Counted from the stretch's first letter, positions 43,535-64,000 are shown. The stretch is 64,000 nucleotides of DNA from Rickettsia sp. (GCA_038131245.1 JAYPPA010000010.1:983-64982); one strand, 5' to 3'. Notes: generated by a model not told the origin, from the letters alone. Numbers and translations are program-made.

Positions 43535-43591
43535 AAAAAACCCGCTCTTTTTAACTTACTAGATCGAGTTTTTTAATAAAACAATAACTTA

Positions 43592-43620
43592 ATTATAATA
43601 TTTAATTGTAATAAAGTCAA
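43592..43620 (-). promoter_or_regulatory. consensus-like promoter TTGACT-17-TATAAT upstream of tRNA-Lys
   Basis: Minus strand TTGACT, spacer ttattacaattaaatat (17 nt), TATAAT. It lies 57 nt before the tRNA 5' end. Confidence 0.6.
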
Positions 43621-43628
43621 GAAAAAAA

Positions 43629-45101
43629 TTAATCCTCATATTTCTTAACTAAATTGTCAAGCAATCTAATGCCAAAGCCAGTCGCGCCCTTAGCAGCCAA
43701 AGGATCACCCTTACCTTTCCAGGCAACTCCGGCAATATCCAAATGAGCCCATTTTGTCTCGCCAATAAATCTTTTTAGAAACTGAGCAGCCGTGGTACTT
43801 CCTGCGCCGCGCCCTGATCCAACATTTTTCATATCAGCAATATCAGAATTGATCATTTCGTCAAATTCCTTACCAACAGGCAATCTCCACAGGCGATCAC
43901 CAGTTTTTTCGCCAGATTCTAGTAATTCTTTGGCCAAATCTTCGTCATTAGAAAATAATCCACCATAAACATCCGCTAAACTCACTACAACAGCGCCAGT
44001 TAAAGTGGCCAAATCAACAATGAATTTTGGCTTAAATTTGGTATTTGTGTAATGCAAAGCATCAGCCAAGACAAGCCTTCCTTCTGCGTCGGTATTGATT
44101 ACTTCGACGGTTTGACCTGACATTGATTGAATCACATCACCTGGTCTTTGGGCAGTAGAAGATGGCATATTTTCCACTAATCCAATCACGCCAACTGCGT
44201 TGACTTTAGCATTTCTTTGAGCCAAATTACGCATTAAACCAACAACGGCAGCAGATCCACCCATATCAGTTTTCATATCTTCCATATTATTTGATGGTTT
44301 GATCGAAATTCCACCAGTATCAAAAGTTACACCTTTTCCAACAAAAGCTATTGGTGCTTCGGTTTTTTTCTTACCACCTAACCATTTCATCACAACTAAT
44401 TTTGATTCAAATGCACTACCCTGACCAACGCCAAGTAAAGCATTCATGCCAAGTTTAGTCATTTCCTTTTCACCAAGAACTTCAACTGTCAAGCCGTCTT
44501 TCTTAAGGTCTTTGCAAATATCAGAATAGCTTTCAGGATTTAAGACATTTCCAGGCTCTGATACTAGGTCTCTTACCAAAAATACATTATTAGCTAAAAT
44601 TTCAAGCTCTTTAAAATCATCTTCAGCCGCTTTTTTATCTGCGCAATTAATTGCTATTTCTTTAACATTGAATTTTTTTCCTTCAATTTTATTTTCAAAA
44701 TATTTATTAAAACGATAGCTTCTAAGCATGATTCCAAAGGCTAATTCACAGATATCCTTACTATCTTTTGCTTTAATTTTTGAGGATTTGTCAATTTTAG
44801 ATCCAAAAAATATTTCAGCAGCTAAAATTTTGCTAGCATTTAAATATTCAGCAATTTTTGCACCTAATTTTTGTATTTGTAAAGCATCAAGATCCTTATC
44901 TTTACCAAGACCAACAAGAATTACTAAATTTCCTTGCAATTGAGAAGTGCAAATTTTACCAAAGCCAGCATCAAAATCGAAATGTTTTTTTGCATAATCA
45001 ATAAATTCAGCCTTTTCTTTTAGTTGAGCTTCGCTAATTGTTACTACGGCTACTTTCTTAGCATCTTTAATAGAAAGATTATCACAAAAATTTATTTTCA
45101 T
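43629..45101 (-). CDS. pepA: leucyl aminopeptidase (M17)
   Basis: 490 aa. VGKGVTFDTGGISIKP and NTDAEGRLVLADAL motifs. Confidence 0.92.
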   Translation of the reverse strand: MKINFCDNLSIKDAKKVAVVTISEAQLKEKAEFIDYAKKHFDFDAGFGKICTSQLQGNLVILVGLGKDKDLDALQIQKLGAKIAEYLNASKILAAEIFFGSKIDKSSKIKAKDSKDICELAFGIMLRSYRFNKYFENKIEGKKFNVKEIAINCADKKAAEDDFKELEILANNVFLVRDLVSEPGNVLNPESYSDICKDLKKDGLTVEVLGEKEMTKLGMNALLGVGQGSAFESKLVVMKWLGGKKKTEAPIAFVGKGVTFDTGGISIKPSNNMEDMKTDMGGSAAVVGLMRNLAQRNAKVNAVGVIGLVENMPSSTAQRPGDVIQSMSGQTVEVINTDAEGRLVLADALHYTNTKFKPKFIVDLATLTGAVVVSLADVYGGLFSNDEDLAKELLESGEKTGDRLWRLPVGKEFDEMINSDIADMKNVGSGRGAGSTTAAQFLKRFIGETKWAHLDIAGVAWKGKGDPLAAKGATGFGIRLLDNLVKKYED

Positions 45102-45171
45102 TTTTTATAGTAATTTAATTGGTTATATTGTATAATTTGTACCTATATATAATATATGAGTTTTTTTAAAA

Positions 45172-45888
45172 ATGCAAATTGATAATTACGAAATAGCAAT
45201 AATTTTAATAACCTTATTTAATATGGGCTTTTTTGGGGGTTTTTTACATTGCTCATCAATGTGCTCTCCGTTTATATTACATCAAGTATCTTCAAGACTC
45301 AAAAATCAGGAATTGGAAAAATATCAAGGATTCGAGAGATTAAAAAACCTGGCTTTAATGCCTTATCATTTAGGTAGAATTGCGACTTATTCAATTATTG
45401 GGGCTTTTTGCTCTTTTTTAGCGGGAAATGTCAGAGATTTTGCAAATTTTCAGCTATTTTCAGGAATTATCTTAATTTTAGCCGCAATTTTGATGATTCT
45501 AGCGGTTTTTAAGAAAAAAATCGGATTTTTTAGTAATTTTTTTACAAAACTTCCTAAAATCAACATTTTTAAGAAGTTTTTAGCTGAATTATTTGCCAAT
45601 CCAACCTCTTATCGAGGCTTTATTTTAGGTATTATCTTGGGATTTTTACCTTGCGGATTACTGTATTCTGCATTTGCTTTGGTTGCTTCGATTGATAATG
45701 TGGCTATTGCTTTTTTTGCTATGATGATTTTTGGCTTTGCAACCTTTCCAGCCTTATTTTTAATAGCCTCTAGCAGCTATATTTTTCTAAATTATGCAAA
45801 AAGTTATATAAAATTCATCGCAAGACTTGTAATTTTAATTAATTCTGCTACTATATTATTTATGGGAATAAATTTAATTGTAAATTGA
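45172..45888 (+). CDS. polytopic membrane protein, DsbD_2 / TauE-SafE-like
   Basis: 238 aa with about 6 TM segments. The GGFLHCSSMCSPF motif in TM1 resembles the HCxxMCGP motif of the DsbD_2 family (from memory). Lies upstream of ccoN. Confidence 0.5.
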   Translation: MQIDNYEIAIILITLFNMGFFGGFLHCSSMCSPFILHQVSSRLKNQELEKYQGFERLKNLALMPYHLGRIATYSIIGAFCSFLAGNVRDFANFQLFSGIILILAAILMILAVFKKKIGFFSNFFTKLPKINIFKKFLAELFANPTSYRGFILGIILGFLPCGLLYSAFALVASIDNVAIAFFAMMIFGFATFPALFLIASSSYIFLNYAKSYIKFIARLVILINSATILFMGINLIVN

Positions 45889-45894
45889 TTATTT

Positions 45895-47340
45895 ATGGCT
45901 AACACTAATTTAAAAACTGTTGAGTATAATTATGATATAGTAAAGCTATTTACTATAGCTGCTGTGTTTTGGGGAGTGGCTGGATTTGCGGCTGGAACTA
46001 CGCTGGCATGGCAATTGGTATTTCCGGCACTAAACCTTGACTCTGAATTTTTTAGCTTTGGCAGGCTGCGCCCTCTTCATACTAGCGCGGTAATTTTTGC
46101 ATTTGGTGGAAATGTACTACTTGCGACAAGCTTTTTCGTTGTGCAAAGAACCTCGCACGCTAGGATTTGGGGTAGCGAAAATTTGCTTAAATTTATTTTC
46201 TGGGGCTATCAATTATTTATTGTTTTAGCTGCTGTTGGATATTTACTTGGAGTTACTCAAGGTAAAGAATACGCAGAGCCAGAATGGTATGTCGATTTGC
46301 TTGTAACAGTAATTTTTGTATGTTACTTTTTGGTTTATGTAATGACATTAAAAAAGCGCTCAGAGCCTCACATCTATGTAGCGAACTGGTTTTATCTTGC
46401 ATTTATAGTGACTGTTGCAATATTACATATTGTTAATAATTTGGCGATTCCTCTTGCTATTGACTCTAGTGCGAGCTATCCCATTTTCGGCGGAGTCCAA
46501 AGTGCAATGATTCAATGGTGGTATGGCCATAACGCAGTTGGATTCTTCTTAACCGCTGGTTTTATTGGAATTATGTATTATTTCGTTCCAAAAAGAGTCA
46601 ATCGCCCAGTGTATTCTTACCGCTTATCAATTTTACACTTTTGGGCCTTGACCTTCATTTATGTTTGGGCTGGACCACACCATTTGCATTATACTGCCTT
46701 GCCTGATTGGGTTCAGACCCTTGGGATGACTTTCTCGATTATTTTATGGATGCCGTCTTGGGGTGGTATGATTAACGGGATTATGACGCTTTCTGGCGCT
46801 TGGGATAAGCTTAGAAACGATCATGTACTTAGATTCTTAATCACCGCAGTAGCTTTCTATGGTATGTCAACTTTTGAAGGGCCTTTAATGGCAATAAAAG
46901 AAGTTAACGCTTTGTCGCATTATACTGATTGGACTGTTGGACATGTACATTCTGGTGCTCTTGGTTGGGTCGCAATGATAAGCTTTGGTGCTTTATATCA
47001 CATGGTTCCTGTTTTATGGAAAAGAAGAGACATATACTCCAACAAATTAGTTGGTGTACATTTTTGGCTAGCAACAATTGGTATCGTACTTTACATTACC
47101 TCAATGTGGGTTTCAGGAATTACTCAAGGCCTAATGTGGAGATCCTATGACGAAATGGGCTTTTTAAGCTATTCATTTGTTGAAACTATTGTTGCAATCA
47201 AACCAATGTTTGCTGTGCGGGCAATCGGTGGATTATTCTTCTTGGCCGGCGCCTTAGTTATGACCTATAATATTTACAAAACAATTAAAGGTGAAAGAGT
47301 CGAGGAAGATTTTGACTTTAGCTTGGAAAAAAATAAATAA
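45895..47340 (+). CDS. ccoN: cytochrome cbb3 oxidase subunit I
   Basis: 481 aa haem-copper oxidase core ([42 protein letters not shown]). Confidence 0.92.
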
Positions 47341-48316: not shown

Positions 48317-48327
48317 TAATAAATATT

Positions 48328-48417
48328 GGAGACATGGCCGAGTGGTCGAAGGCGCTTTCCTGCTAAGAAAGTATACGGGTGACTGTATCGAGGGTTCGAA
48401 TCCCTCTGTCTCCGCCA
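48328..48417 (+). tRNA. tRNA-Ser (anticodon GCU)
   Basis: Hand-folded. GGAGACA acceptor, D-arm GCC-GAGTGGTCGAA-GGC, anticodon stem CTTTC/GAAAG with loop CTGCTAA, long variable arm, T-arm GAGGG-TTCGAAT-CCCTC, encoded GCCA end. Confidence 0.92.
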
Positions 48418-48463
48418 TAAAATATTTAAATAGTCTGCGTAGCGGATTATTTAAATATTTTAT
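48417..48463. repeat. perfect 15-bp inverted repeat abutting the tRNA-Ser 3' end
   Basis: ATAAAATATTTAAAT (48417-48431) and ATTTAAATATTTTAT (48449-48463) flank a 17-nt loop agtctgcgtagcggatt. Confidence 0.7.
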
Positions 48464-48865
48464 AGTGGGCTTGGATGAGAACCCGAGCAGAGGGTTCGCC
48501 AATTTTAGTAATTTTTCTTAATAAGCGTAGCGAATTTAGAAAAATCTTGAAAATTGTAAGTGAGCGCAGCGAACGCCATCCCGACTGTCTGTCGCCATCC
48601 GCTTACGCTATCGCTACAGCGTGATTAGGCGAAGTGATTTATAGTGGGTTTGGATGAGAAGTAAGAAGAAGAGGGTTCAATGAAAAGCTGTAATTTTATT
48701 AGAACGAACGAAGTAAGTTCAATAAAATAAGCATTCAGGGCGAGTTAAGCGAGCCACAATTTTAGTAATTTTCTTAATGAGCATAGCGAATTTAGAATTA
48801 CAGATGATCTGCTACGGCCGAAAAGGGAGTTAATCCCTGAAATCTGTCGCCATCCGCTTTCGCTT
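48461..48865 (+). repeat. two degenerate tandem units (about 180 and 225 bp) carrying tRNA-Ser 3'-half-like fragments
   Basis: Shared blocks occur in the same order in both units. TATAGTGGGYTTGGATGAGAA is at 48461 and 48640. AGAGGGTTC (T-arm-like) follows. CAATTTTAGTAATTTTCTTAATRAGCRTAGCGAATTTAGAA is at 48500 and 48757. CTGTCGCCATCCGCTT is at 48589 and 48844, compared with the tRNA end CTGTCTCCGCCAT. Confidence 0.65.
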
Positions 48866-48875
48866 TACACCTCAC

Positions 48876-49481
48876 TCACAACTCCTCAGCCTTAAACTCG
48901 TTATAGCCTTCGTAAAAATAGCTAGCATCAAGTCCTCTCATAAATATCGCGCGGTCATTGATTTTGTCTGTTAGGGCTTTTTTTAGCAGATCTTTAATCT
49001 CGATGTCTTTAACTGGACTGCGTTTCATTGCTGATAAATAATCTTCTTTATCTACTAAATTCCAATCAATGACCTGTTTTATTTCTTTTTTTAGAATTAG
49101 ATCCAGCCAAATCCTAGTAGCCCTGCCATTACCTTCTCTGAAAGGGTGAGCAATGTTCATTTCGACATATTTTTCGATAATTTCATCAAAATTGCCTTGA
49201 GGCATTTTATTTATATGCTCTAGTGACTGTTTTAAATACATTGCAGGGGCAAAACGAAAATCATTTTTAGCAATATTGACCTCGCGTATTTTACCTGCAA
49301 AATCGTAAATATCCTCAAAAAGATAATTGTGAATATAAGCAAGTGAGGCAAAAGTCCCAACTTTCGTTTTATCAATGTCGCCACTTTCAAAAAGCTGCTT
49401 AGCCTTTGTTTTACTGATACGCTCTTCGGCTTTGTTAAGCTGCGCCTGATTAGTTATATTTAATTTATTTTCTAGCAACAT
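48876..49481 (-). CDS. fic: Fic-domain protein (AMPylator-type), class III-like
   Basis: 201 aa with the canonical Fic motif [12 protein letters not shown] and a C-terminal SYFYEG that matches the inhibitory (S/T)xxxE(G/N) motif. Confidence 0.88.
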
Positions 49482-49528
49482 ATTATTATTGGTAAATTAT
49501 CCATCACATATCACTTTAATTACAACTA

Positions 49529-49557
49529 ATTATAGCAGATATTTTGCTAAATTGCAA
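49529..49557 (-). promoter_or_regulatory. promoter TTGCAA-17-TATAAT for fic
   Basis: Minus strand TTGCAA, spacer tttagcaaaatatctgc (17 nt), TATAAT. It lies 47 nt upstream of the fic ATG. Confidence 0.6.
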
Positions 49558-49595
49558 TAAAAAAGCTTGGAGAAACTGGATTGTCACGATTTTCC

Positions 49596-49624
49596 TTGAC
49601 AAAAGTCTTAAAATGTGCTATAAT
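49596..49624 (+). promoter_or_regulatory. consensus promoter TTGACA-17-TATAAT for the thioredoxin-like gene
   Basis: TTGACA at 49596-49601, 17-nt spacer ending in TGC, TATAAT at 49619-49624. Confidence 0.65.
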
Positions 49625-49679
49625 GGAATTATAAAGATAAAGTTTTCACTTTTATACCAGCTAAAAAAACAAACAAAAT

Positions 49680-50228
49680 ATGCCCCTTACCTACTCATCA
49701 ATGTTAAAACTAGGTACCATGGTACCTTCTTTTGAACTTACCAATACGATTGACGCTAAAAAGTTCAATTCAGACTCTTTATCGGCCGAAAAAGGCAAAC
49801 TAGTAATGTTTATTTGCAACCACTGCCCTTATGTAGTTCATTATCATGAGCAAATTGTCGATATTTACAAGAAATATGGCTCAAAGATTGAGTTTGTAGC
49901 AATAAGCTCCAACGACGCAACAGCCTATCCAGAAGATGGCCCAGAAGAAATGCGTGAGTTATTTAGCGAGCTAGGTCTTGATTTTCCGTATTTATATGAT
50001 GAAACTCAAGAAATTGCTAAGAAGTACAAGGCCGAGTGCACTCCAGAATTTTATCTCTTTAACAAAGAAAATGAGTTAGTTTATCGCGGTAGAATGGACG
50101 GCACTTCGCCTGGATCTGGAAATCCAACCGGAGAAGATTTACGCGCCGCAATTGACGCTTCACTTGCTAAAAAAGAAGTCACACCAGATCAAAAGCCATC
50201 AATGGGATGCAATATTAAGTGGAAGTAG
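49680..50228 (+). CDS. thioredoxin-fold protein (AhpC/TSA-like thiol-disulfide oxidoreductase)
   Basis: 182 aa. The CNHCPYV CxxC motif sits in a thioredoxin-like context (KLVMFICNHCPYVVH..AISSND). Confidence 0.75.
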   Translation: MPLTYSSMLKLGTMVPSFELTNTIDAKKFNSDSLSAEKGKLVMFICNHCPYVVHYHEQIVDIYKKYGSKIEFVAISSNDATAYPEDGPEEMRELFSELGLDFPYLYDETQEIAKKYKAECTPEFYLFNKENELVYRGRMDGTSPGSGNPTGEDLRAAIDASLAKKEVTPDQKPSMGCNIKWK

Positions 50229-50344
50229 TTTAAAATTTAGTGAAATTTTATTAATCCTATATTATAATAAATCAAGCTAAAGGACTTCAAAATTAAATAA
50301 AGAAAGTTTTAGAATTTATTTACAATTTAATTAAAAAATTAGGC

Positions 50345-51571
50345 GTGAATATAATAAAAATGAAGAAATTAGGATTAAAGATTTCTATAGCAATATTTAT
50401 TTATGGAGTAATTTTAAGTAGTCCATTTTTACTATCTAATACAGAAAAAGCCATTTTTGGAGTGTTTTTCTATGCTGTGCCATTGATTGTTAACCTTAGC
50501 AAAAGAGCAACTAATCTAGCTAAAGTACATTCAATATGGTTTGGCGTATTTATGGTTTTACAGTCTATATTAATCTTTTCAATTTTTAATATTGACTATA
50601 TTACTTTACTACCTAATCTTGATCAAAAAATAGATGTAAAGGAAGGTGCTCTTTCAAATATTACTGGTGTTCAACATATTATAACTGATGAAAAAGGCTT
50701 TAGAGTTACTAAAAAAATAAATTATGAGAATAAGCCAAATAATAAATATAGAATTTTTGCCATTGGAGCCTCTACAACAGAACAAATATATCTTGATCAA
50801 GAAAAAAGCTGGACCCATCTTTTGCAAAAAAAATTAGATGATAAAAATCAAAACCTAGATTTTGAAGTAATTAATACAGGGGTGTCTGGTCTTAGAGCTA
50901 TTAATCATATAGACACCTTAAAGGAAATATTAAAATATAAACCAGACATGGTTATTTTCTTGATAGGAATTAATGATTGGAATCACCATATTAAACAACA
51001 TCATAAAAATGGTTATGATAAGTTTATAAATAATTTGCCAGATTTTATGATTGGTGTACCATATGATGAAGCTTTAAGAAGATTTGTAAGAAATTTAAAA
51101 AAGAAAAAAAGGGAAAGTTGGAACGCAGAATTAAAAGAGGCTTATTTTGCTTATGGGTCTTTAAACAAAGAAAACAAAAAAACCTTTAAGCCTCACGAGG
51201 TATTGAATTCCTATAAAAAAGAATTGAATAAAATAAGTCAAATTTGCAATAAAAATAACATTGATTGTGTTTTTGCAACTCAACCAAATGGTTATAAAGA
51301 GTATGTCTCTCAAGATTATAAAGATTTATTTTGGATGACCCCTCCAGAAGAAGATTACACACTTAATTTTGACTCAATGGTTTATATTTCTGATCTTTAC
51401 AATAAATACATGATTCAATTTTCAAGCAAAACAGGTAATAAATTGTGCGATCTTGATAGCAAAATTCCAGCTTCTTTGGATTATATGTATGATGATTGTC
51501 ACTTTAATGTTAAGGGAGCAGAAAAAGTGTCAGAAATTCTATTTGATTGTATAGGGATTCCTCAGAATTAG
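50345..51571 (+). CDS. membrane-anchored SGNH/GDSL-family hydrolase
   Basis: 408 aa with about three N-terminal TM segments, then SGNH blocks: I (IFAIGASTTEQ), II (GVSG), III (GINDW), V (DDCHF). GTG start in the track, with an ATG 5 codons in. Confidence 0.7.
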   Translation: MNIIKMKKLGLKISIAIFIYGVILSSPFLLSNTEKAIFGVFFYAVPLIVNLSKRATNLAKVHSIWFGVFMVLQSILIFSIFNIDYITLLPNLDQKIDVKEGALSNITGVQHIITDEKGFRVTKKINYENKPNNKYRIFAIGASTTEQIYLDQEKSWTHLLQKKLDDKNQNLDFEVINTGVSGLRAINHIDTLKEILKYKPDMVIFLIGINDWNHHIKQHHKNGYDKFINNLPDFMIGVPYDEALRRFVRNLKKKKRESWNAELKEAYFAYGSLNKENKKTFKPHEVLNSYKKELNKISQICNKNNIDCVFATQPNGYKEYVSQDYKDLFWMTPPEEDYTLNFDSMVYISDLYNKYMIQFSSKTGNKLCDLDSKIPASLDYMYDDCHFNVKGAEKVSEILFDCIGIPQN

Positions 51572-51588
51572 ATACTTTCTATATTTTA

Positions 51589-51666
51589 ATGGAGATTGAG
51601 GCTTTGTTGACTGGGGGTAAAATATCAGCTGATCAAAAGCCTTCGATGTGCTGTAATATTAAATGA
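51589..51666 (+). pseudogene. 3'-terminal remnant of a paralogue of the thioredoxin-fold gene
   Basis: Reads MEIEALLTGGKISADQKPSMCCNIKstop. Compare the C-terminus of the 49680 gene, AAIDASLAKKEVTPDQKPSMGCNIKWKstop. Confidence 0.55.
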
Positions 51667-51675
51667 AAAAACTAA

Positions 51676-52104
51676 GTGGCCGATTATTTTGAATTACTCG
51701 CTTTATTCTTCTCATCCCTTTTAGCAGCAACCATATTTCCAACTCAATCAGAAATGGTTCTAGTCGCAATGTCTCTTGGCGGCAAATATTCTTCAGCCTT
51801 ATTACTAACAATTGCCACTGTCGGAAATGTACTTGGGTCCTTGTTCAACTGGCTCTTAGGCTTTTATATTGCAAAGTTCAAAGACAAGAAATATTTTCCA
51901 GTTAATGAAAAGCAACTCAGTAAATATTCTAAGATTTATGAAAAGTGGGGCGTGTGGTCGCTATTACTGGCTTGGGTACCAATAATTGGAGATCCGCTGA
52001 CTGTTGTTGCTGGGATATTTCGCACTAATATTTGGTTATTTTTACTATTGGTAACTATCGGAAAATTCACGCGCTATTTTATTTTAATAATTTCGCTACA
52101 ATAA
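51676..52104 (+). CDS. YqaA/DedA-type (SNARE-associated) membrane protein
   Basis: 142 aa, GTG start, four hydrophobic segments. The ..GDPLTVVAG.. motif is typical of the family. Confidence 0.65.
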   Translation: MADYFELLALFFSSLLAATIFPTQSEMVLVAMSLGGKYSSALLLTIATVGNVLGSLFNWLLGFYIAKFKDKKYFPVNEKQLSKYSKIYEKWGVWSLLLAWVPIIGDPLTVVAGIFRTNIWLFLLLVTIGKFTRYFILIISLQ

Positions 52105-52199
52105 TTTAAAAAATCGTTAATATTTCTTGTATTTAAATAAAAAATATTATACTGTATAAATATGAGATAGAATTATCTATTTCATAAATAATATTAAAA

Positions 52200-52730
52200 A
52201 TGAAAAAATTTGCCTATATTTTATTCATTATACTTTCTTTAAGCGCTTCTTCATATGCTAATCAGGCTGCTTGGAATATGAAATTTGTAGTACCTGACCC
52301 AAGAGCATCCGTTGATTTTTGCAAGAAAATTCTAGAGATGCACGAAACTGGAATTCCCAATCAAGTAAAATTTAGAGACTCACCCTTAGAATTACATTTT
52401 TTTAGACTAACAAATAACGACCCTGAATATTTATCTTCTTTAAATAGAATGACCTTAGAAAATACTTTTATAAAAAACCATGCAACAGTAGTAGTTAACG
52501 ATCTTGATTATTATTTAGAAAGATTTATTAAAAACAATATTCGTTTCTTAGGGCCAATAGGACGACATGACGGTATATACCAGGTATATTTTGAGATTCC
52601 TAACCATGCTTATCTTGAATTTCAATCAAGAAAAATGCCCAAATTAGCAAAAACAATTAGAATGAGAAATGTGAATATAAAAACAGAAGTCAAACAAGAG
52701 CCTCAGCTAGATCCGTTTTATAACCACTAA
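52200..52730 (+). CDS. hypothetical secreted protein
   Basis: 176 aa with a signal peptide (MKKFAYILFIILSLSASSYA). No confident family. Confidence 0.5.
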   Translation: MKKFAYILFIILSLSASSYANQAAWNMKFVVPDPRASVDFCKKILEMHETGIPNQVKFRDSPLELHFFRLTNNDPEYLSSLNRMTLENTFIKNHATVVVNDLDYYLERFIKNNIRFLGPIGRHDGIYQVYFEIPNHAYLEFQSRKMPKLAKTIRMRNVNIKTEVKQEPQLDPFYNH

Positions 52731-52787
52731 GATAAGAAAAACCAAGGCCTTTATTTTAAAAAATAAAGACCTTGGTCAAAAAATAGA

Positions 52788-52991
52788 CTAATCTACTTTA
52801 ATTTTTACAGCAGACTGTCTGCCTCTGTTTTCTTCGATTTCGTAAGAAATAGATTGACCTTCTTGCAAATTAGCAATTCCTTGCTTTTGTAATTCGCTAA
52901 TATGAACAAAAACATCCTTGCTTTTGTCACTTGGCTCGATAAATCCGAAGCCTTTGGTAGGGTTAAACCATTTTACCTTTCCAGTTTCCAT
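52788..52991 (-). CDS. cspA: cold-shock domain protein
   Basis: [27 protein letters not shown] carries the RNP1/RNP2 motifs. Start moved to the ATG, because the track start at 53024 is a TTG inside a palindrome. Confidence 0.9.
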
Positions 52992-53018
52992 AATTTTATT
53001 ATTATAGTTAATATTATT

Positions 53019-53034
53019 GGACAATTAATTGTCC
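53019..53034. promoter_or_regulatory. perfect 16-bp palindrome GGACAATTAATTGTCC in the csp 5' region
   Basis: Read directly. Lies 28 nt upstream of the csp ATG. Function unknown (operator or 5'-UTR hairpin). Confidence 0.4.
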
Positions 53035-53242
53035 TTAGCTAGTGTAATAGTTGATTTTAGCAATAATAAGAAACTCTAATAAAGTAAAATTTTACGACCT
53101 TATAAGGCAGGAGCTTACCCCGACATATAATAATTAAACTAAGCCATATCTATATTATACTCCATCCTTTCATTATAAGCAACATAAATTTTCATATATT
53201 TATATTTTATTATAAAATATAGCTTAAAAAAACCGATTTTTC

Positions 53243-53271
53243 TTGACAAGCTCATCAAAATATGCTATAAT
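53243..53271 (+). promoter_or_regulatory. consensus promoter TTGACA-17-TATAAT
   Basis: TTGACA at 53243-53248, 17-nt spacer ending in TGC, TATAAT at 53266-53271. It lies 40 nt upstream of the ATG at 53312. Confidence 0.65.
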
Positions 53272-53311
53272 TGATATATAAGCAGTAAAACAACTAGAAA
53301 TTTTTTAGCTT

Positions 53312-53950
53312 ATGCTTAGAATCGCGGCGATTACAACATTTCTAATACTCTTCATAGCCCCACCGGATATACTTGCACGCCCTATTTCTTATTCTGGTGG
53401 CTCTACGATAATGGCGATGAGTGGTCCGATAAAAAGCTCAATTCATGCACATTATTCGCCTACTTACAAATATTCAGTTGGCTATAAGGCAGAGTATCTA
53501 AGGCGAAGCCAAATTGCTTTAAATGGGGCTCAGCTCAATAATTTGCTCAAAAGGTGGAATTTACCGGCTGCGCAAGGTAATTTATACCTCAAATCTTCTA
53601 TTGGTAATGCAAATAAGTCTGGAGAGGATGAGGCTTATGGGTTTGTGGGTGTGGCTGGGGATTTTGAAACTAGGAAATATTTTGTTTCTTACGAGAATCG
53701 CTATTATAAGTCGGATGGTGGGATTTTGAGTCAATTTGAGCAATCAGCTAGAGTTGGCGTGGCTCCTTATGTGGCGGAATATGGAAATTTACACACATGG
53801 TTGATGCTTCAGGTTGATCATGTGCCAAAGTTTAAAGGTGACGAGGTCATTGCAACCCCGCTAGTTAGGCTCTTCAAGGGGCTTCACATGGCGGAATTTG
53901 GCGTGAGCACCAATAAGAGATTTATGCTTAACTTTATTGCCCGCTTTTAA
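53312..53950 (+). CDS. putative small outer-membrane beta-barrel protein
   Basis: 212 aa with a signal peptide, alternating aromatic/hydrophilic strands and a C-terminal Phe (..NFIARF). Family unknown. Confidence 0.5.
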   Translation: MLRIAAITTFLILFIAPPDILARPISYSGGSTIMAMSGPIKSSIHAHYSPTYKYSVGYKAEYLRRSQIALNGAQLNNLLKRWNLPAAQGNLYLKSSIGNANKSGEDEAYGFVGVAGDFETRKYFVSYENRYYKSDGGILSQFEQSARVGVAPYVAEYGNLHTWLMLQVDHVPKFKGDEVIATPLVRLFKGLHMAEFGVSTNKRFMLNFIARF

Positions 53951-53951
53951 T

Positions 53952-54233
53952 ATGATTAAAAAAATTATTACTGTAACATTTTTGGTGTTTTTTTCCACTA
54001 GTGTCAGCGCTAAAGAGATCAATGTTGATGTTAATGGCCTAGTTTGTGAGTTTTGCGCAGTCACTATTGAGAAGAATTTCATGAAATTGAAGGATATAGT
54101 GCAAAAAATTGAAGTCAGCCTTGGCAAAAAGAAGGTTTTTATTGAATTTAAGCCCGGCAAGGATCTATCAGACAAGGAAATCACTGATATTATCGTCAAT
54201 AATGGCTATAATGTAGTTAAAATTAACAGATAA
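53952..54233 (+). CDS. periplasmic heavy-metal-associated (HMA) domain protein, MerP/CopZ-like
   Basis: Start at MIKKIITVTFLVFFSTSVSA (signal peptide), then VNGLVCEFCAVTIEKNF, the CxxC metal-binding loop of the HMA fold. Confidence 0.7.
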   Translation: MIKKIITVTFLVFFSTSVSAKEINVDVNGLVCEFCAVTIEKNFMKLKDIVQKIEVSLGKKKVFIEFKPGKDLSDKEITDIIVNNGYNVVKINR

Positions 54234-54241
54234 TATATATA

Positions 54242-54610
54242 ATGAGAATTAAAGAGACTATTTTACCATTTTTTGGTTTATTTACTTCGCTTTCAACGAT
54301 TTTATGTTGCGCGCTGCCAATTATTCTGGTGACACTTGGCATGGGAGCAGTATTTGCAAGTCTGACTGCGAATTTTCCTTTTGTGATTTGGTTAGCTGAA
54401 CGCTCTGTTTATTTATTTACTATTACCGGGATTTTGTTGGCTCTAGGTGGGTACTTTATATTTATTTATCCGCAAGAATGCCCTGCGGACAAGAAAATGG
54501 CTGAGATTTGTGCTAAAACCAAAAAATTCAACAAGATAGTTTGGTGGATTTCGGTGGTGATTTTGCTGATAAGTCTGTTTTTTAAATATGGGCTGATTTT
54601 ATTTATTTAA
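54242..54610 (+). CDS. small membrane protein with vicinal Cys pair in TM1 (MerT/MerC-like metal transporter)
   Basis: 122 aa. LSTILCCALPIILV in the first TM segment and a second Cys pair in a loop (ECPADKKMAEIC). The family call is from memory only. Confidence 0.5.
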   Translation: MRIKETILPFFGLFTSLSTILCCALPIILVTLGMGAVFASLTANFPFVIWLAERSVYLFTITGILLALGGYFIFIYPQECPADKKMAEICAKTKKFNKIVWWISVVILLISLFFKYGLILFI

Positions 54611-54646: not shown

Positions 54647-54675
54647 TTGACTTTATTTTGATGAAATGTTATAAT
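54647..54675 (+). promoter_or_regulatory. promoter TTGACT-17-TATAAT for the giant exoprotein gene
   Basis: TTGACT at 54647-54652, 17-nt spacer ending in TGT, TATAAT at 54670-54675. It lies 53 nt upstream of the ATG at 54729. Confidence 0.6.
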
Positions 54676-54728
54676 GGAACTTAGCCTTTATTAAAGATAA
54701 TGTAGATTTTAATAGAAATAAACCAAAG

Positions 54729-57700
54729 ATGCAAACCCACATATATTTGACATCACCATTGTTAAATATGATTATTATTAAAGCTTTTGATAGGGCTTTA
54801 AAATATTTTCTGATTTACCTTCTGACTTTTTTACCTGTTAATATCCTGGTTGCTTCAAAATCCTACGCAAATATCCCTGGTCAGCTTCCTGTTGTGGCTG
54901 ATGGGAGTACGAATACTGTTGTGACTAGGGCTGCAAATGGGGTTAATGTTGTGAATATTGCGACTCCGGATGGGGGCGGTGTTTCTCGAAATAATTTTAG
55001 TGACTATAATGTTGATCGAGCTGGCTTGGTAATCAATAATGCTGCGGTTGATAGATATAGTAGTGGGATTGTTAACACCGGGATTGCTGGGCTTATACTG
55101 ACGAATCCGAATTTGAATGAGGCTGGTGGGGCTAATGTTATTTTAAATCAGGTGACTTCAAATAGGATTACCCGGATTGATGGTTATACCGAGGTGGCTG
55201 GGCAAAGAGCGGATTTGATTATTGCTAACCCCAACGGGATTATGATTAATTCAGGCGGATTTATTAATACTGACCGCTTGAGTATGATTGTTGGGCGTGA
55301 AGTTGTTGGGACTGGGTCTGGGGTTGTTAATAATGGGGATTTGCGATTTAGACTTACTTCTGCGCCTCATCTTGAGTCTGGATTTCTGCCTGAGCTGACG
55401 ATTTCTGGGGCTGGTATTGATTTAACCAGGGTTGCTCAGACTGAATTTGTCGCGAATTTAATTAGGCTTACTGGTGAGGCTGGGGTTTATGCTGGCGATA
55501 ATGATGTTAGGTTTTTGACTGGAGATGGTGAGTATGGCTATCAAGCGAATGCTGTAGCTTCTGTTGCTGTTGATGGAGATGGTGGCGGTGCTTCGCAAAT
55601 TGCGATTGATGCTTCTTCATTGTCGCAAATTCAAGCTGGAAATATTTTTATGGTGGCTAGCAAAGAGGGTTTTGGTGTTAAATATTCAGGGTTGATGCTG
55701 GCGAATTTGGGAGATATTAATGTTACAGCGGCTGGGGATATTGAGTTTGAGGATTTTATTGGTGTGAGTAGGGATTTTTCGGCTGTTTCTGGCGGGGATT
55801 TGGCGGTTGATGGAAGTGATATTGTTGCGACTGGTAATGTGGCTTTGGATGGGCAAGATGTTACGGTGATAGGTGACTCGAATGTTGTTGCTGATGGGGG
55901 TGTGGCTTTGACTGGAAGTGGGAATTTAACGGTGGATTCTAGTCATATTGAGGCGGTAAATGTTGAGATGAGTTTTGAAAATGGCGATACTTTACTTGAA
56001 TCTTTTGGCTCGTTATCTAATAATTTTTCATTATTAAGTGGTGGAAATATTGATGTTGAGGGTAGTTCTATAATATTGTCAGATGAGATTAACTTGAATT
56101 CTGGAGGTAATATTGTTATTGATTCAAGTAATTTACGGGCTATAAATGAGGCGAATCTAGCTTCTCGAGATTTGACTATTTCAAATGGTTCGGGCGTTGT
56201 TGCTAGTAATTTACTATTAAATACTAACGGTGCAGATTTTGAGGTTGATGGAAGTAATGTTGTGGCTGGTGAGGCGAGCTTTTTAAATGGAAGGAATTTT
56301 CTGCTGGTAAATGATAGTAATTTTATTGTGAATGGGAATGTTGACATTGATTTTGCCGGGTCTATTAATGTTAATGGAAGTAGGATTGAAGGTAATAATG
56401 TTGATTTAAATGCGGCTGGAGTGACTGTTGAGAATAATTCGGTTGTTGTTGGAAGTGAGGATGTTGATTTGAGTTCTGATGGGATTTTAAGAGTTGATGA
56501 AAGTGATATTGGGTTTGGTAATACTTTGAATTTAAGTGGTTTAAACGGAGTTAATGTAGTTAATTCTTCGAATATTATTTCTGATGGTGGAAGTACCACC
56601 CTTGCCTCTTTATCTGGAGATATTAATGTTAATTTAGGGTACATTAGAGCTAATGGAGTTAATTTTGATGGTAGAAATATTTTAATTGGTGGATCTGTTA
56701 TTGATTCTAGCTCTATTGATTTAGATCCTAATGTTGGTAATATTACTATAAATTCTAGTGATTTAATAGCTGATGATATATTGATATCGTCAACGACCAA
56801 TAATTTATTGGTTGAGAATGATTCGAATATTATTGTTACTAATGGTGCTAATATTGATATTACTGGGGATCTTCGAGTTAATTTGAGTAGGATTGAAGGC
56901 GGCAGTGTTGCTTTAAATGCGGCTGGAGTGACTGTTGAGAATAATTCGGCTATTGTTGGTGGTGAGGATGTTAATGTTGTTTCGAGTGAAGCTTTGAGAA
57001 TTGATTCAAGCGATGTTGGTTCTTTTAATGGAGATGTAGCTCTAAGTTCTAGCAATATTGTAATTGGTAATTCTTCGAATGTAATTGCTAGTGCAGGAAT
57101 TATTGGTATTACTTCTGACACTGATATTATACTTGATTCTAGTTACACTGGGGCAAGTAACTTGAGATTGAATTCTGGTAGGGATATTTATTTACGAAAT
57201 TCTTCTAATGTTGTTAGTAATTTAAATGCTAGTTTTGCTTCTCATGGGGATTTTAATTTAGAAGCAAGCAATATTCAATCAAGCAGATTAAGGGTTGATT
57301 CTGGGGGTATTATTAATATAGGTAATTCCAATATTATTAGTGAGAATGTGGATTTTGATTCAAGTGCTGCTACTTCCGTAAGATCAAGTAATATTATAGC
57401 TGATAATTTAGATTTTGATGTAAATGGTTTATTGGTTGAAGGTGATTCGAACATTGTTGTAACTGGTGATGTTAATGTTGATTCTAATAATTATATTAGG
57501 TTGAATTTAAGTAGGATTGAAGGTAATGATGTTACTTTAGATGGGGCCGGAGTGACTATTGAAAATAATTCGGTTATTGTTGGATCTCAAGATGTTACTT
57601 TAAACTCAAGTAATGATATAATTATTGATTCTAGTGATGTTGGTTTTGTTAACCAAAACTCTTCTGGAAATATAAATTTCAGTTCCAGTAATGATATTAT

Positions 57701-60700
57701 TCTTAGAAACTCTTCCAATATAATTATTGATCAAGGTAGTGTTGATTTTCTTTCTGGAGGGTCTATTTTATTAGACGATAGCTATATTAGATCTGATAAT
57801 TCAATCTTAAATGCCAATTCTATTGCAATTGCAAATAATTCTAATATTTTAACTAATTATATAGAGCTAAATTCTAATCATGGCGATATTACTATAAATT
57901 CTAGCAATATTATTACTGAGGATATATTGATATCAGCATCAACAAACAATTTTTTAATTGAAAATTCTTCTAATCTTAGCGTTGGTAATGATATGGATAT
58001 TGAAACCGCTGGAAGTATTAGAATAAATCTAAGTAGAATTGATGCTGATAGCGTTAATTTGGATAGCAATTCTATAATTATTGAGAATAATTCGGTTGTT
58101 GTTGGAAGTGAGGATGTTGATTTGAGTTCTGATGGGATTTTAAGAGTTGATGAAAGTGATATTGGGTTTGGTAATACTTTGAATTTAAGTGGTTTAAACG
58201 GAGTTAATGTAGTTAATTCTTCGAATATTATTTCTGATGGTGGAAGTACCACCCTTGCCTCTTTATCTGGAGATATTAATGTTAATTTAGGGTACATTAG
58301 AGCTAATGGAGTTAATTTTGATGGTAGAAATATTTTAATTGGTGGATCTGTTATTGATTCTAGCTCTATTGATTTAGATCCTAATGTTGGTAATATTACT
58401 ATAAATTCTAGTGATTTAATAGCTGATGATATATTGATATCGTCAACGACCAATAATTTATTGGTTGAGAATGATTCGAATATTATTGTTACTAATGGTG
58501 CTAATATTGATATTACTGGGGATCTTCGAGTTAATTTGAGTAATATTTTTGCTAGCAATATCAATTTTAATGCAAATGACATTAAAGTTGAAAATGATTC
58601 AAGTGTAGTTGCAGAAGGAGATATTAATGTAAATTCTAATATTGATGTAGCTTTAGATATGGGGAATATCGGCTCTTTCAATGGCAATATTTCGCTGACT
58701 TCTGGTGATGAAGTTATAGCTAGGAATTTTTCTAGTGTGATTGCTGATAACGGAAATATTGACTTTAATTCGACTGCTAATACTCAAATAGCTGCTAGTT
58801 ATATTGGGGCGAATGATTTGAATTTAGCTGGAAGTAGCATTGCGATTGTTGCTGGGGCTAATATAGTTGTTAATAATGTGAATTTGTTGTCAACTGGTCC
58901 AAATGTTACTGTTGGATCTAGTAATATTATAGCTGATAATTTAAATTTTGATGTAAATAGCTTGTTGGTTGAGGGTGATTCGAACATTATTGTAACTGGT
59001 GATGTTGATGTTGATTCTAGTGGCTATATTAGGTTGAATTTAAGTAGGATTGAAGGCGGCAGTGTTGCTTTAAATGCGGCTGGAGTTACTATTGAGAATA
59101 ATTCGGTTATTGTTGGTGGTGAGGATGTTAATGTTGCTTTGAGTGGAACTTTGAGAATTGATTCAAGTGATGTTGGCTCTTTTGATGGAGATATAATTTT
59201 AGCTGCCAATAATATTAACACTATAAATTCTTCAAATTTAATTGCTAATCAAGGGGATGTTCAAATTAATTCGATTACAGATAACATACTTGATTCCAGC
59301 TATATTGATGCAAATAATTTAACTATAAATACTGGTGGAAATATTTATATTAGAAACTCTTCTGAAATTATTACCGATCTAGATGTTAATTTAATTTCTG
59401 GTGAATCCGTAACTTTACAAGCAAGCTACATTCAATCATCTGGATTAAATGTTAATTCTGGAAAAGCTGTGAATGTAAATAATTCTAATATTCTTAGTGA
59501 AAATATAAATTTTGATTCAAGTGGTAATACCAATATTAACTCAAGTAATATTGTATCTAATAATAATTTAAATTTTGATATTACTGATTTGATTAGTGCC
59601 AATTCAAACATTATTGCAACTGAAAATATTAATATAAACTCAACTGGAAATGTTGCTGTTAACTTAGGTAGAATCGAGGCAAATAGAATTAACATTATTG
59701 CAAATAATGTGGTTGCTGAAAATAATTCTAATATTATTACTAGCCAAGATGTTGAATTTATTTTAACCGGCGACTTTACTGCGGACTCTAGTAATATTGG
59801 ATCTTTCAATGGAAATATACTATTAAGTGCAAACAATATTGCGATTAATAACTCTTCTAATGTAATTTCTAGCACAGGAGATGTTGAAATTACTTCAAAC
59901 GAAAATATTATAATCGATTCTAGTTATGTCGAAACAAATATACTGACTGCAAACTCTGCTGGAGGTATAAATTTAATATCGAGCTACGCTGAATTAAATG
60001 AACTAAACATCGATTCTTCAGATACCTCTATTGCAAATTCTGATATTTTTGCTGAAGATATAAACCTCAATTCAAGTAACTCTATTAGCATAATATCAAG
60101 TGACATCATAGCTAGCAATGATTTGAATTTTGATGCAAACAACTTGTCAATAGAAGCCAGGTCAAATATTGTCGCAACTGGTGATTTTGATGCTAATACA
60201 ACTGGCAATATTAATATCAATTTATCAAGAATTGAAAATGAGAGTATAAATTTTAATGCAAATAATATAACTATTGGGGCCATTTCTAACATTATCGCAA
60301 ATGAAAATATTTCCATGACTTCGAATAATGATATATTATCTGACGCGAGTAATATCGGCTCTTTCAATGGTAATATTTCGCTGACTTCTGGTGATGAAGT
60401 TATAGCTAGGAATTTTTCTAGTGTTATTGCTGATAACGGAAATATTGACTTTAATTCGACTGCTAATACTCAAATAGCTGCTAGTTATATTGGGGCGAAT
60501 GATTTGAATTTAGCTGGAAGTAGCATTGCGATTGTTGCTGGGGCTAATATAGTTGTTAATAATGTGAATTTGTTGTCAACTGGTCCAAATGTTACTGTTG
60601 GATCTAGTAATATTATAGCTGATAATTTAAATTTTGATGTAAATAGCTTGTTGGTTGAGGGTGATTCGAACATTATTGCAACTGGTGATGTTAATGTTGA

Positions 60701-63700
60701 TTCTAGTGGTTATATTAGGTTGAATTTAAGTAGGATTGAAGGTAATAATGTTGATTTAAATGCGGCTGGAGTGACTGTTGAGAATAATTCGGTTGTTGTT
60801 GGAAGTGAGGATGTTGATTTGAGTTCTGATGGGATTTTAAGAGTTGATGAAAGTGATATTGGGTTTGGTAATACTTTGAATTTAAGTGGTTTAAACGGAG
60901 TTAATGTAGTTAATTCTTCGAATATTATTTCTGATGGTGGAAGTACCACCCTTGCCTCTTTATCTGGAGATATTAATGTTAATTTAGGGTACATTAGAGC
61001 TAATGGAGTTAATTTTGATGGTAGAAATATTTTAATTGGTGGATCTGTTATTGATTCTAGTTCTATTGATTTAAATCCTAATATTGGTAATATTACTATA
61101 AATTCTAGTGATATCATAACTAACAACCTATCAATCACACCAACAGTAAATTATTTGTTAGTTGAAAATAATTCTAATATTGATTTAATCAATGCAAACG
61201 ACATAAATTTTATTGTTAATGGTGACTTTAGAATTAACCTAAGTAATATTTTCACCAATCAAGCAAATATTACTGCAAATAATATTTTTATTGAAAATGA
61301 TTCCAATATAATTGCACGGAACAATGTTAATCTTAACTCCAATAATCAGATCCATTTAAATTCGGGAAACATTAGATCTTATAATGATTTAAATTTAGCT
61401 GCAAATTTGATATTAGTTGCAAATAACTCAAAAATAATTACCGATCAAAATTCAAGCATCAACTCTACCACAGACATAATAACTAATCTAGGTTATATAA
61501 GATCTGGTAACCTAAATTTTAATAGCAATAGAGTAATATTTGCAAATAATTCAAATATTATTGGAAATTATGTTAATATAAATCCAAATAGTGGCAATAT
61601 AACAGCAAATTCCAGTAATATTATAGCTCAAAATATAAATATAGATCAAAATACCAATAATATTTTAGTTGAAAATGAATCAAATATCGTCATTGCCAAT
61701 GATTTTAATCTTAATATTAATGGTAATGTGATGGTAAACTTAAGCAACATCTTTGCCGACGATATAAACTTTAATTCTAATGGTCATATTACATTTGAGA
61801 ACAGCTCAAATGTAATATCCCAAGGTGAATCTAGATTAAACTCGTCAGACAATATAAGGCTTGATTCTGCAAATATTAGCGCTAGTGGATTATATTTGGT
61901 AGGTAATAATCTAAATATCGTAAATAATTCTAATATAATATCTGATTCAAGTGTTGGACTAAACTCCACAGCAACCATTAACATTAATAATAGCGACATT
62001 AGGTCAAATAATATGTTTGCAAACGCTAATATCATTAACTTAGAAAATAACTCTAATATTGCCGCTGGTGAAAATGTAAATTTCCTTACCACTCAAGGAT
62101 TTATCAATGTTAATTACTCCAATATTCGATCTAACAATATAAATCTTATTAGTGCAAATAACCTAACTATTGCAAATAATGCCAATATCGTAGCAAATAA
62201 TAGCTCCAACCTAACATCTAACACAAATCTACTCGTTAATAATGCCAATGTTAGAGCAAGCACTCTTAATGCTAGCGCAAATTCTGTTGTTTTTGAAAAT
62301 AATTCAAACTTAGTAAGTGAAAATATTGCCAATATATCATCTTTTTTAGATCTTAGATTTACTTCAAGCAATGTAAGATCAAGCAACTTAAATTTAAGGG
62401 GTAGCAGAATATTTATCAACGACAACTCTAATATAGTAGCGCTCGGAGCTAACAGTAATTTTACTTCCAATACAGATATAGAATTTAATTTAAGTGACGC
62501 AACTTTGAGTAATATCACTTTTAATGCTAAAAACACATCATTTGTTAATTTCTCAAATGCAGCAATAGGAAATGCTACCTTTAATATTACCGGCGATATA
62601 GACAACAACAGCAGGGTTGCAATTGATCAATCTTCAAAAATTTTAAGCACCACAAATACCGATAGATCCTCTAATACTATAAACATGACTTCAAATGACC
62701 GCAGAACTGGCGTTGATTTTGCAACTATAGCTAACTCCAATAGAATCGATTTTATCAACAATGGACAAATTATTTCTGAAAATGGCCTATCCATAATATC
62801 TGATGGTAATATTTCTCTACTTGCCAATAGTGTACTTTCTTCTGCAAATGAAACTTATGTTGAATCTAGGCATGGTAATATTCGTAACATACCAGGTGCA
62901 GAAATAATTACCGGCGGCAGCCTGACCTTAAGCGCTATAAACGGCTTAGTTGGTCAATATAGTAGAAATAGTGTGTCTGTTGATGGTAATCACATTATCT
63001 CCGCTGCGAGCTACACAAATACCGGAAGAGTTGATATTTCTGGCGACTTAACAATGAATATCACAAATGACTTGATTAATGAGGCCGGAGCCTTGATTTA
63101 CGCTGGAAATGATATGTTTTTAAATATTGGTAATAATTTAATTAACAATCAAAATGCAGCCATTTATGCTGGAAATAATTTAACGATCAGAAAATTAGAT
63201 CCAACTGCTCCTGGGTATGATGCAAACAACAATAATTTAAATCAAATAGACAATATCGCAGGAACAATTGAATCCGGCAGAAGTATTCTAATTAATGCAA
63301 GCGCTTTAAATAATACTGGAATTGATTATGACCCTGATACGAGTGGATTCTTTGGGTATAACATCAATTACCTAGTTCACAGAGGTGGACATGGAGAAAA
63401 TTTCTACAACTTAATGCAAGAAGATCAGGCTGTTTCTACCTTAAGGACCATTCAAGCATTTATTAGCTCTGGTGAAAACATAACCATTAATAATGCCAAT
63501 GTTCACAACTACAGTAGCTCAATTACAGCCCAAGGAAATATCTCCATTAACAACGGATCACTTAATAACGAAACCTCATCAAGACTTGTTACTGGACTTA
63601 GAAGGCAATATGGCAAACACTGGAGAACAAAACACCATAGGTGTAATTGGAGACGCTGCAGTCATTATGAGGTTGATCATTGGCACGATTATTGGCAAAC

Positions 63701-64000
63701 CTACGATGTAAACATAAGATCATCAGAAAATGCAAATATAAAAGCCGGAGGAAACTTTACCTTAAATGGAGTTAATCAAATTAATAATGGTTACCTTAAT
63801 AACTCACTTGGCGCTCAGATTTTAGTAACAAACCCACTATTAATAACAGATATTTTAGACACCGGCGCGATCGCCATCGATTTTAGCGAATATTTCACTG
63901 ATATTAGTGCTCAAAGCGTCACCGCCCAAACAGAATCCATCACAGCTCAAAATTCTGCCTCACTATCTGAAAACCGAAGTATCAATAGCAACGCACGAAA
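54729..64000 (+). CDS. giant TpsA-type (filamentous haemagglutinin-like, two-partner secretion) exoprotein; more than 3090 codons, 3' end beyond the window
   Basis: Own translation. Signal peptide [47 protein letters not shown]. TPS domain ..[35 protein letters not shown].., with NPNL at 55104 and ANPNGI at 55227. Then kilobases of N/S/I/D/G/V-rich beta-helix-type repeats. Stretches at 55941-58140, 59220-59760 and 63480-64000 were translated by hand with no stop. No plus-strand ORF is listed here, which is consistent with edge truncation. Confidence 0.88.
   Translation, partial: [3090 protein letters not shown]
56428..56889 (+). repeat. cassette A copy 1 (462 bp)
   Basis: Reads identical to 58081-58542 by eye. 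Confidence 0.85.
56888..57040 (+). repeat. cassette C copy 1 (about 150 bp)
   Basis: Roughly 90 percent identical by eye to 59045-59197. Offset 2157 bp (3 x 719). Confidence 0.65.
58081..58542 (+). repeat. cassette A copy 2 (462 bp)
   Basis: Offset from copy 1 is 1653 bp (3 x 551), so it is in frame. Confidence 0.85.
58665..59056 (+). repeat. cassette B copy 1 (about 392 bp)
   Basis: Matches 60351-60742 with about 5 mismatches by eye. Confidence 0.8.
59045..59197 (+). repeat. cassette C copy 2 (about 150 bp)
   Basis: See copy 1. Here it follows cassette B rather than cassette A. Confidence 0.65.
60351..60742 (+). repeat. cassette B copy 2 (about 392 bp)
   Basis: Offset from copy 1 is 1686 bp (3 x 562). 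Runs directly into cassette A copy 3. Confidence 0.8.
60731..61112 (+). repeat. cassette A copy 3 (partial, about 382 bp)
   Basis: Matches 56381-56762 with 3 mismatches seen by eye. Offset 4350 bp (3 x 1450). Confidence 0.8.

Follow-up and report, generated by a model that had tools for sequence, protein, structure and literature searches.

Probable concerted evolution by in-register gene conversion in the repeat array of a TpsA-like exoprotein gene from a Rickettsiales-like bacterium

The TpsA exoproteins of two-partner (type Vb) secretion include FhaB, CdiA, HpmA/ShlA, EtpA and CdrA (PMC5422565, PMC9086364). In CdiA a first repeat region serves as an extended scaffold, which presents the receptor-binding domain at its tip (PMC9086364). 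Recombination among near-identical repeats is well documented in surface-protein genes, and the Periscope proteins, CdrA included, are surface proteins of variable length with highly identical tandem repeats (PMC8201768, PMC9704523). FhaBC-type systems are known from basal and from some crown Rickettsiales (PMC10847448). In this work we focused on a TpsA-like exoprotein gene lying on a 64,000-nucleotide stretch of DNA assigned to Rickettsia sp. (GCA_038131245.1, JAYPPA010000010.1:983-64982), hereafter called the window. An original prediction, made from the sequence alone, had described near-identical in-frame cassettes reshuffled inside this gene at one conserved junction motif. Our analysis indicates that the cassettes are patches of recent exchange within a tandem array of diverged units, and that they probably reflect concerted evolution by in-register gene conversion.

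As in other TpsA proteins, the product begins with an N-terminal two-partner secretion (TPS) domain and continues as a very large, repeat-rich, predicted all-beta passenger. Its nearest relatives (36-47% N-terminal identity) carry DUF637 pretoxin regions or a TNT toxin, one of them with a downstream TpsB, and the array occupies a place equivalent to the first repeat region of CdiA. It differs from the described proteins by a 170-aa super-repeat outside the filamentous hemagglutinin (FHA) repeat families of Pfam, and its C-terminus and TpsB are beyond the window.

Genes such as msp2, vlsE and pilE undergo segmental gene conversion from silent donors. In meningococci, the exchange of tpsA/cdiA 3' cassettes uses silent cassettes located downstream (PMC3848433). 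The exoprotein gene shares with these systems the in-frame exchange of modules by homologous recombination at conserved sequences, but there the donors, external to the expressed gene, take the place of a functional end or of a variable region, whereas the partners here are units of one expressed array. Searches of the array by blastn and tblastn against positions 1-54700 of the window detected neither cassette copies nor silent donors, and no single crossover site was found in the array. With the Periscope proteins the gene has in common a long tandem array in a secreted stalk, with near-identical stretches that should allow in-frame changes of length. It lacks the high DNA identity between tandem repeats by which those proteins are recognized, most pairs of units being only 49-65% identical (with few exceptions), and its near-identical tracts cover only parts of units, located 3-8 units from each other. 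Concerted evolution by gene conversion provides the features seen here, namely tracts of a few hundred bp, identity at synonymous sites, several ages of exchange and tract ends at conserved islands, and no difference in kind was found. The proposed mechanism is a familiar one and not new, that of ordinary concerted evolution of a repetitive surface-protein gene.

Units were defined by cutting the predicted protein at the recurring heptapeptide N-L-S-R-I-E-G, and all 11 units thus obtained (U1 to U11) align along their whole length. The original prediction had overlooked the regular tandem array that makes up the body of the gene, in which the motif marks the boundary between units. The array extends from 55710 to 62660 and comprises 11 full units of 167-208 aa and 2 degenerate ones (Table 1, with scores from a hidden Markov model, HMM, of the unit). 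Each unit is made of approximately four 42-aa sub-repeats, visible in the DNA as a 51-nt motif family spaced by 123-129 nt. An additional insert of 39-42 aa is common to U2 and U6 (57180-57300 and 59337-59460); equivalent to about one sub-repeat, it brings them to 208 aa compared with ~169 aa otherwise; U7 carries a shorter version. The background DNA identity among codon-aligned units is 49-65%. Adjacent units are never near-identical, and the pairs rising above the background are found within U1/U4/U9 and U5/U8. Tandem Repeats Finder did not report the array, the units being too diverged and the period longer than 500.

An ungapped diagonal self-comparison of positions 54675-64000 delimited three families of cassettes, designated A, B and C. 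The identity of A1 and A2 over 462 bp held without a single mismatch, as had been read by eye, and the 392 bp of cassette B were likewise found with the 5 mismatches announced. The third copy of A was recovered with its 3 mismatches, located at 56711, 56724 and 56733 of A1, although it starts at 60728, 3 nt away from the position first given (60731). Cassette C was present over 150 bp at both sites, at an identity of 93% (10 mismatches) instead of ~90%. All offsets are multiples of 3, as originally noted (1653 for A1-A2, 4350 for A1-A3, 1686 for B and 2157 for C). The neighbour relationships do differ between copies, A being followed by C, B by C and B by A, to which the order A then B has to be added. 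Expressed in units, a sliding comparison found U1 equal to U4 from position 56 to the end and to U9 over positions 6-390, and U5 equal to U8 from position 133 to the end. U2 and U6 are 85-95% identical over their first ~160 nt, U2, U5 and U8 show 88-98% identity in their last 129 nt, and the first 81 nt of U1, U2, U3, U6 and U9 are 81-98% identical. The tracts differ in age, with identities of 100%, 99%, 93% and 88%, and mismatches are concentrated toward the tract ends.

The cassettes are supported as products of recent recombination or gene conversion, in agreement with the original prediction. A1 and A2 show 0 synonymous differences in 462 bp and the other recent tracts show 1-3, compared with differences at 35-50% of sites in other units. 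Identity within the tracts is 99-100% against the unit background of 49-65%, and it falls to ~60% in the flanks, so that the tracts are bounded by diverged sequence at positions that differ between pairs. A Sawyer-type runs test was made on the polymorphic sites of unit pairs. The observed run was reached in 0/2000 permutations for U1-U4, U1-U9, U4-U9, U5-U8 and U2-U6 (p < 5e-4). For two control pairs, U6-U7 and U10-U11, the test showed no significance (p = 0.54 and 0.90).

We consider it probable that these tracts arose by concerted evolution, paralogous units having undergone gene conversion in register. Tracts of 385-462 bp, together with older and decayed ones, would have been copied in register between non-adjacent units. 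The copying would be non-reciprocal, would extend over a few hundred bp and would proceed by general (RecA-type) homologous recombination. As strand exchange needs local identity, tract ends would favour islands of conserved DNA, and the N-L-S-R-I-E-G unit boundary would be the strongest of these islands, hence the coincidence of several ends there. In the most economical history U1 would have been the donor both to U4 (tract 56428-56889) and to U9 (tract 56378-56762), because its left part is shared with U9 and its right part with U4. Long perfect direct repeats would arise as a by-product. Through them, segments of 1653, 1686, 2697 or 4350 bp should be open to loss or duplication in frame, corresponding to 551 to 1450 aa of shaft.

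Table 1. Coordinates of the exoprotein gene, its array and the cassettes within the window
Feature	Position	Strand	Remarks
Cassette A1 (U1 position 56 to 10 nt into U2)	56428..56889	+	462 bp identical to A2
Cassette A2 (U4 position 56 to 10 nt into U5)	58081..58542	+	0 mismatches vs A1
Cassette A3 (U9 positions 6-390)	60728..61112	+	385 bp, 3 mismatches vs 56378-56762
Cassette B1 (U5 position 133 to 20 nt into U6)	58665..59056	+	392 bp, 5 mismatches vs B2
Cassette B2 (U8 position 133 to 20 nt into U9)	60351..60742	+	pair of B1
Cassette C1 (U2 head)	56886..57035	+	150 bp, 10 mismatches vs C2 (93%)
Cassette C2 (U6 head)	59043..59192	+	pair of C1
Older tail-plus-head block over the U2/U3 boundary	57374..57584	+	homologues 58907-59117 and 60593-60803; 88-95%
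Junction motif AATTTRAGTAGGATTGAAGG (N-L-S-R-I-E-G)	56880..56899	+	marks unit boundary
Degenerate repeat units, 5' array edge	55710..56372	+	unit HMM domains E 6e-15, 1e-15
Eleven full super-repeat units U1-U11	56373..62237	+	unit HMM E 1e-47 to 6e-66
Unit starts U1-U6	56373, 56880, 57504, 58026, 58533, 59037	+	
Unit starts U7-U11	59661, 60219, 60723, 61236, 61737	+	
Degenerate unit, 3' array edge	62238..62660	+	unit HMM E 2e-13
Exoprotein (TpsA/FHA-like) open reading frame	54729..63998	+	passes window end, so 3' truncated
Sigma-70-like promoter TTGACT-17-TATAAT with TG extension	54647..54675	+	11/12 consensus positions; consensus match only
TPS secretion domain, residues 55-339	54891..55745	+	PF05860, TIGR01901, PDB 1rwr
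Conserved post-array region, residues 2678-3056	62760..63896	+	common to relatives

Several points weigh against this reading. We only infer in which direction transfer went and that RecA took part. The gene comes from a single assembly, on which the order and number of its units depend; the contig, of draft or metagenome-assembled genome (MAG) quality, measures 65,995 bp, the gene appears to run into its end, and the perfect 462-bp repeat exceeds a typical short read. Three of the six recent tract ends fall in one 20-nt motif, which is more than a uniform distribution would give, and some local preference therefore exists. Finally, the beta-solenoid proposed below for the shaft is read from secondary structure modelled by AlphaFold2 (AF2), and Foldseek gave no significant match.

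The alternative that the repeat region was mis-resolved in assembly, making the cassettes' order, copy number or perfect identity wrong, is unlikely in our view. Such an artefact could have come about through collapse, expansion, wrong entry-exit pairing of a shared core of 283-462 bp, or homogenisation during polishing. The window corresponds to nearly the whole draft contig, with the gene cut at or near the contig end, and TpsA genes of related MAGs often stop at contig ends. From the same run (SRR26337539), two short Logan contigs (2.8 and 5.9 kb) match the window at 100% over 43506-46298 and 48325-54264 and end before the gene; none that covers it was retrieved. The only repeated 31-mers of the whole window are confined to 56378-61060, which also speaks for an artefact, but every junction (A>C, A>B, B>C and B>A) is spanned by unique 31-mers, and at three junctions the sequence that matches both partner copies exactly is only 4, 14 and 15 nt long. 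Such short overlaps are incompatible with a de Bruijn chimera for k >= 21; chimeras of k-mers at the motif were rejected on this ground, and the local mosaic is unlikely to be one. In addition, A3 has 3 differences of its own and B has 5, the tract limits vary between copies, and mis-pairing would permute the blocks while leaving a mosaic in place. That the frame stays open over 9.3 kb is a weak argument, since all offsets are multiples of 3. The assembly risk raised by the original prediction is real for order and copy number; the junctions are marked by unique 31-mers.

No second assembly of the exoprotein gene was found in protein, genome (185,579 species genomes) or JGI metagenome collections. 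A search of metagenome contigs with the junction 20-mer gave two chance matches without protein similarity. The product is absent from the protein collection searched, which would fit a protein truncated where the contig stops. Provided that the structure is correct, the locus would represent a clear case of concerted evolution within a gene for a secreted filament, from a bacterial lineage about which little is known, with a shaft that exceeds that of its nearest relatives by ~2200 residues and a repeat nearly absent from public protein data. In practical terms, the repeat region is where draft assemblies are least trustworthy, and in-frame length variants are worth seeking in reads.

A more far-reaching interpretation, which we hold to be quite unlikely, is that the array is a working length-variation device of a CdiA-like filament. 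In-frame variants shorter or longer by 551, 562, 899 or 1450 aa, generated by recombination at the perfect direct repeats, would then coexist in the population, and repeated conversion would preserve the identity of a few units, leaving the switch usable. The reach of the filament tip toward a host or competitor cell would change accordingly, and the periscope idea would extend to a toxin-delivery TpsA of near-orphan repeat type.

The original prediction had placed all junctions at a single fixed crossover point, and this part of it was not supported. The motif AATTTRAGTAGGATTGAAGG is exact at 56880, 57504, 59037 and 60723 and is found with 2 mismatches at 56373, compared with 0.03 matches on average in shuffled sequence. 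Taken as a dedicated recombination site, N-L-S-R-I-E-G would allow a programmed shuffling of cassettes for antigenic or length variation. Every exchange is in frame, as such shuffling would have it, and the three recent tracts have half of their six ends in the 20-nt motif (unit positions 6, 10 and 20), but the other half lie elsewhere, at position 56 (left end of A1/A2), 133 (left end of B) and 390 (right end of A1/A3). The older homology of ~210 bp (88-95%) runs unbroken through the motif at three boundaries (57374-57584, 58907-59117 and 60593-60803), and the motif copy at 57504 is without any recent tract end. Moreover, the motif is the 5' edge of an 81-nt head block common to five units, and its first 9 nt are the most conserved DNA of the unit, as measured on units outside the recent tracts. 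The tract ends are mostly located in stretches of high local conservation (percentiles 98, 94, 91, 89 and 78), with two exceptions (56 and 29). Ordinary homologous recombination predicts the same preference, which needs no special site because the motif starts the most conserved block of the unit. The motif is not palindromic and its coding role explains it; the upstream 54.7 kb yielded no silent donors, and a scan of neighbouring genes revealed no recombinase. Programmed shuffling is therefore very unlikely, and the motif is, to judge from the sequence, a favoured place for ordinary homologous exchange and not a dedicated crossover site.

Very little credit can likewise be given to a reading without gene conversion, in which unequal crossing-over recently duplicated blocks of several units in tandem and the copies then diverged. 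Offsets of three units do occur, for U1-U4, U5-U8, the tails of U2-U5 and the heads of U3-U6 and U6-U9, but a duplicated block should be uniformly identical over the 1.65-kb period, whereas identity drops from 100% to ~60% within one unit. A recent duplication of the whole block does not fit because the tract spans only 462 of the 1653-bp period. The pairs U3-U7, U4-U7 and U7-U10 are only 53-55% identical, and the relationships between U1 and U9, 8 units apart, and between U2 and U6, 4 units apart, break the period. Simple block duplication was rejected on this patchiness of identity within the unit. Purifying selection on the protein, to which the motifs conserved across units at the protein level might point, is refuted and has practically no chance of being the cause of the identity, because synonymous sites are identical as well (0 differences over the 462 bp of A1/A2 and 1-3 for the remaining tracts, with other units 35-50% different).

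A tail-plus-head block of ~210 bp is present at every third unit boundary, and several other relationships have a three-unit offset. There are hints in the sequence of an older higher-order period of three units, which later conversions may have blurred.

A single unit and a pair of consecutive units were modelled with AF2, taking the paralogous units as input alignment; the models reached a pLDDT of 95.5 and 93.7, respectively, and contain short beta strands only. Compared with the PDB using Foldseek, both models were without a match at E < 0.001; the weak matches obtained (TM 0.17-0.46) were mostly beta-helices, including the TpsA adhesin EtpA. On these models the shaft is probably a beta-solenoid and would have the shape of a rod. 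The unit itself had no match in Pfam, including the FHA repeat families, or in NCBIfam, and its profile had none among PDB sequences. Searched against 1.84 billion representative proteins, the unit profile gave 27 weak matches (E < 1e-3, best 3e-19), the best of which are unrelated and dissimilar D/N-rich repeat proteins. The U4-U6 region found nothing in the protein database, and the unit HMM found nothing in the TpsA genes of 14 relatives. The 170-aa super-repeat thus appears to be nearly an orphan, almost without known relatives.

The exoprotein frame, open from position 54675 onward, probably starts with the ATG at 54729; it continues past the end of the window and encodes more than 3090 aa. 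Judged from relatives, ~1900 further residues are expected 3' of the window. A near-consensus sigma-70-type promoter is located 54 nt 5' of the ATG. The TPS domain was recognized by PF05860 (E 2.1e-36) and TIGR01901 (E 2.8e-17), and its region matched PDB sequences of Bordetella FHA (1rwr, E 4.7e-25) and of HpmA-type hemolysins (~1e-18). A hydrophobic stretch that may belong to a signal peptide ends in SKSYA and aligns with ...SS.VYA of relatives, directly before the conserved LP..DGSTNT. Because of the TPS domain at residues 55-339, the exoprotein can be assigned on sequence grounds as a TpsA of two-partner secretion. A Pfam scan of the full 3090-aa translation returned no family, whereas the first 391 residues alone gave TPS at E 2e-36; the empty result is probably a filter effect of a long biased sequence, and is a warning for the automated annotation of such long repetitive genes.

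Minus-strand open reading frames (ORFs) of 102-392 aa overlap the exoprotein gene at 55943-57121, 57878-58687, 59432-59875 and 59984-60367, and others at 60710-61138, 61784-62092 and 62114-62608. Rather than genes, they are most likely by-products of the biased and repetitive coding sequence.

The TPS region has its best relatives among proteins annotated as "filamentous hemagglutinin, partial" in Rickettsiales or Rickettsiaceae MAGs, at 39-48% identity. Three loci with a related N-terminal region (L004, L006 and L009) also share the post-array region, at 50%, 30% and 29% identity, respectively. In L004, a 2982-aa ORF, the TPS region aligns to residues 22-454 of the exoprotein, and residues 688-1077 match the post-array residues 2678-3056. 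The gap between the TPS domain and the conserved downstream region is ~210 aa in this relative against ~2220 aa here, and the array can be regarded as a lineage-specific expansion because of this difference in spacer. L004 (16430-18829) ends in a TNT toxin domain of the NAD-glycohydrolase type, L006 (14561-16960 and 17897-19708) and L009 (11280-13679) contain DUF637 pretoxin regions, and L006 has a TpsB gene immediately downstream of tpsA. Because its closest TpsA relatives carry toxins, the truncated gene can be read by analogy as CdiA-like, and its product is probably a CdiA/FhaB-like filament protein. Neither the post-array region nor U1-U3 found relatives when scanned against genomes and metagenomes.

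Self-comparison of 10 Rickettsiales-type relatives with long ORFs detected intragenic repeats of ~90% identity in L003 only; none were seen in the 9 others, nor in L016 or L037. This count of 1 in 10 may be too low, as MAG assemblies are biased against contigs crossing such repeats. A distant Sulfurimonas locus (L028) has one intragenic repeat, of 1014 bp and out of frame. The 90%-identical repeats of L003 lie at 8920-10090, with periods of 366-384 and 750-768 nt. Near-identical tandem repeats of ~100 aa are also found in the partial FHA-like MAG proteins P0002, P0004 and P0005, which stop at contig ends.

The window has a G+C content of 33.8%, and the rest of it contains ordinary chromosomal genes, for an NAD-glutamate dehydrogenase, two class A penicillin-binding proteins, a ribonucleotide reductase, a cbb3 oxidase, FtsA and an ABC-F protein. 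CcoN is 85% identical to its nearest relative, and the named relatives are Rickettsiales MAGs at 75-78%. The species of the window was not among the GTDB r232 representative genomes searched. The source organism appears from these similarities to be an uncultured Rickettsiales-like bacterium. No TpsB gene was present among the larger ORFs scanned in the 54.7 kb upstream, and a downstream position as in L006 would be beyond the window. Directly 5' of the exoprotein gene are two small genes (53952-54610), one with a weak HMA domain and one for a weakly MerT-like membrane protein (E 6e-5, under the Pfam cut-off). A gene with a Fic domain is located on the minus strand at 48876-49481.

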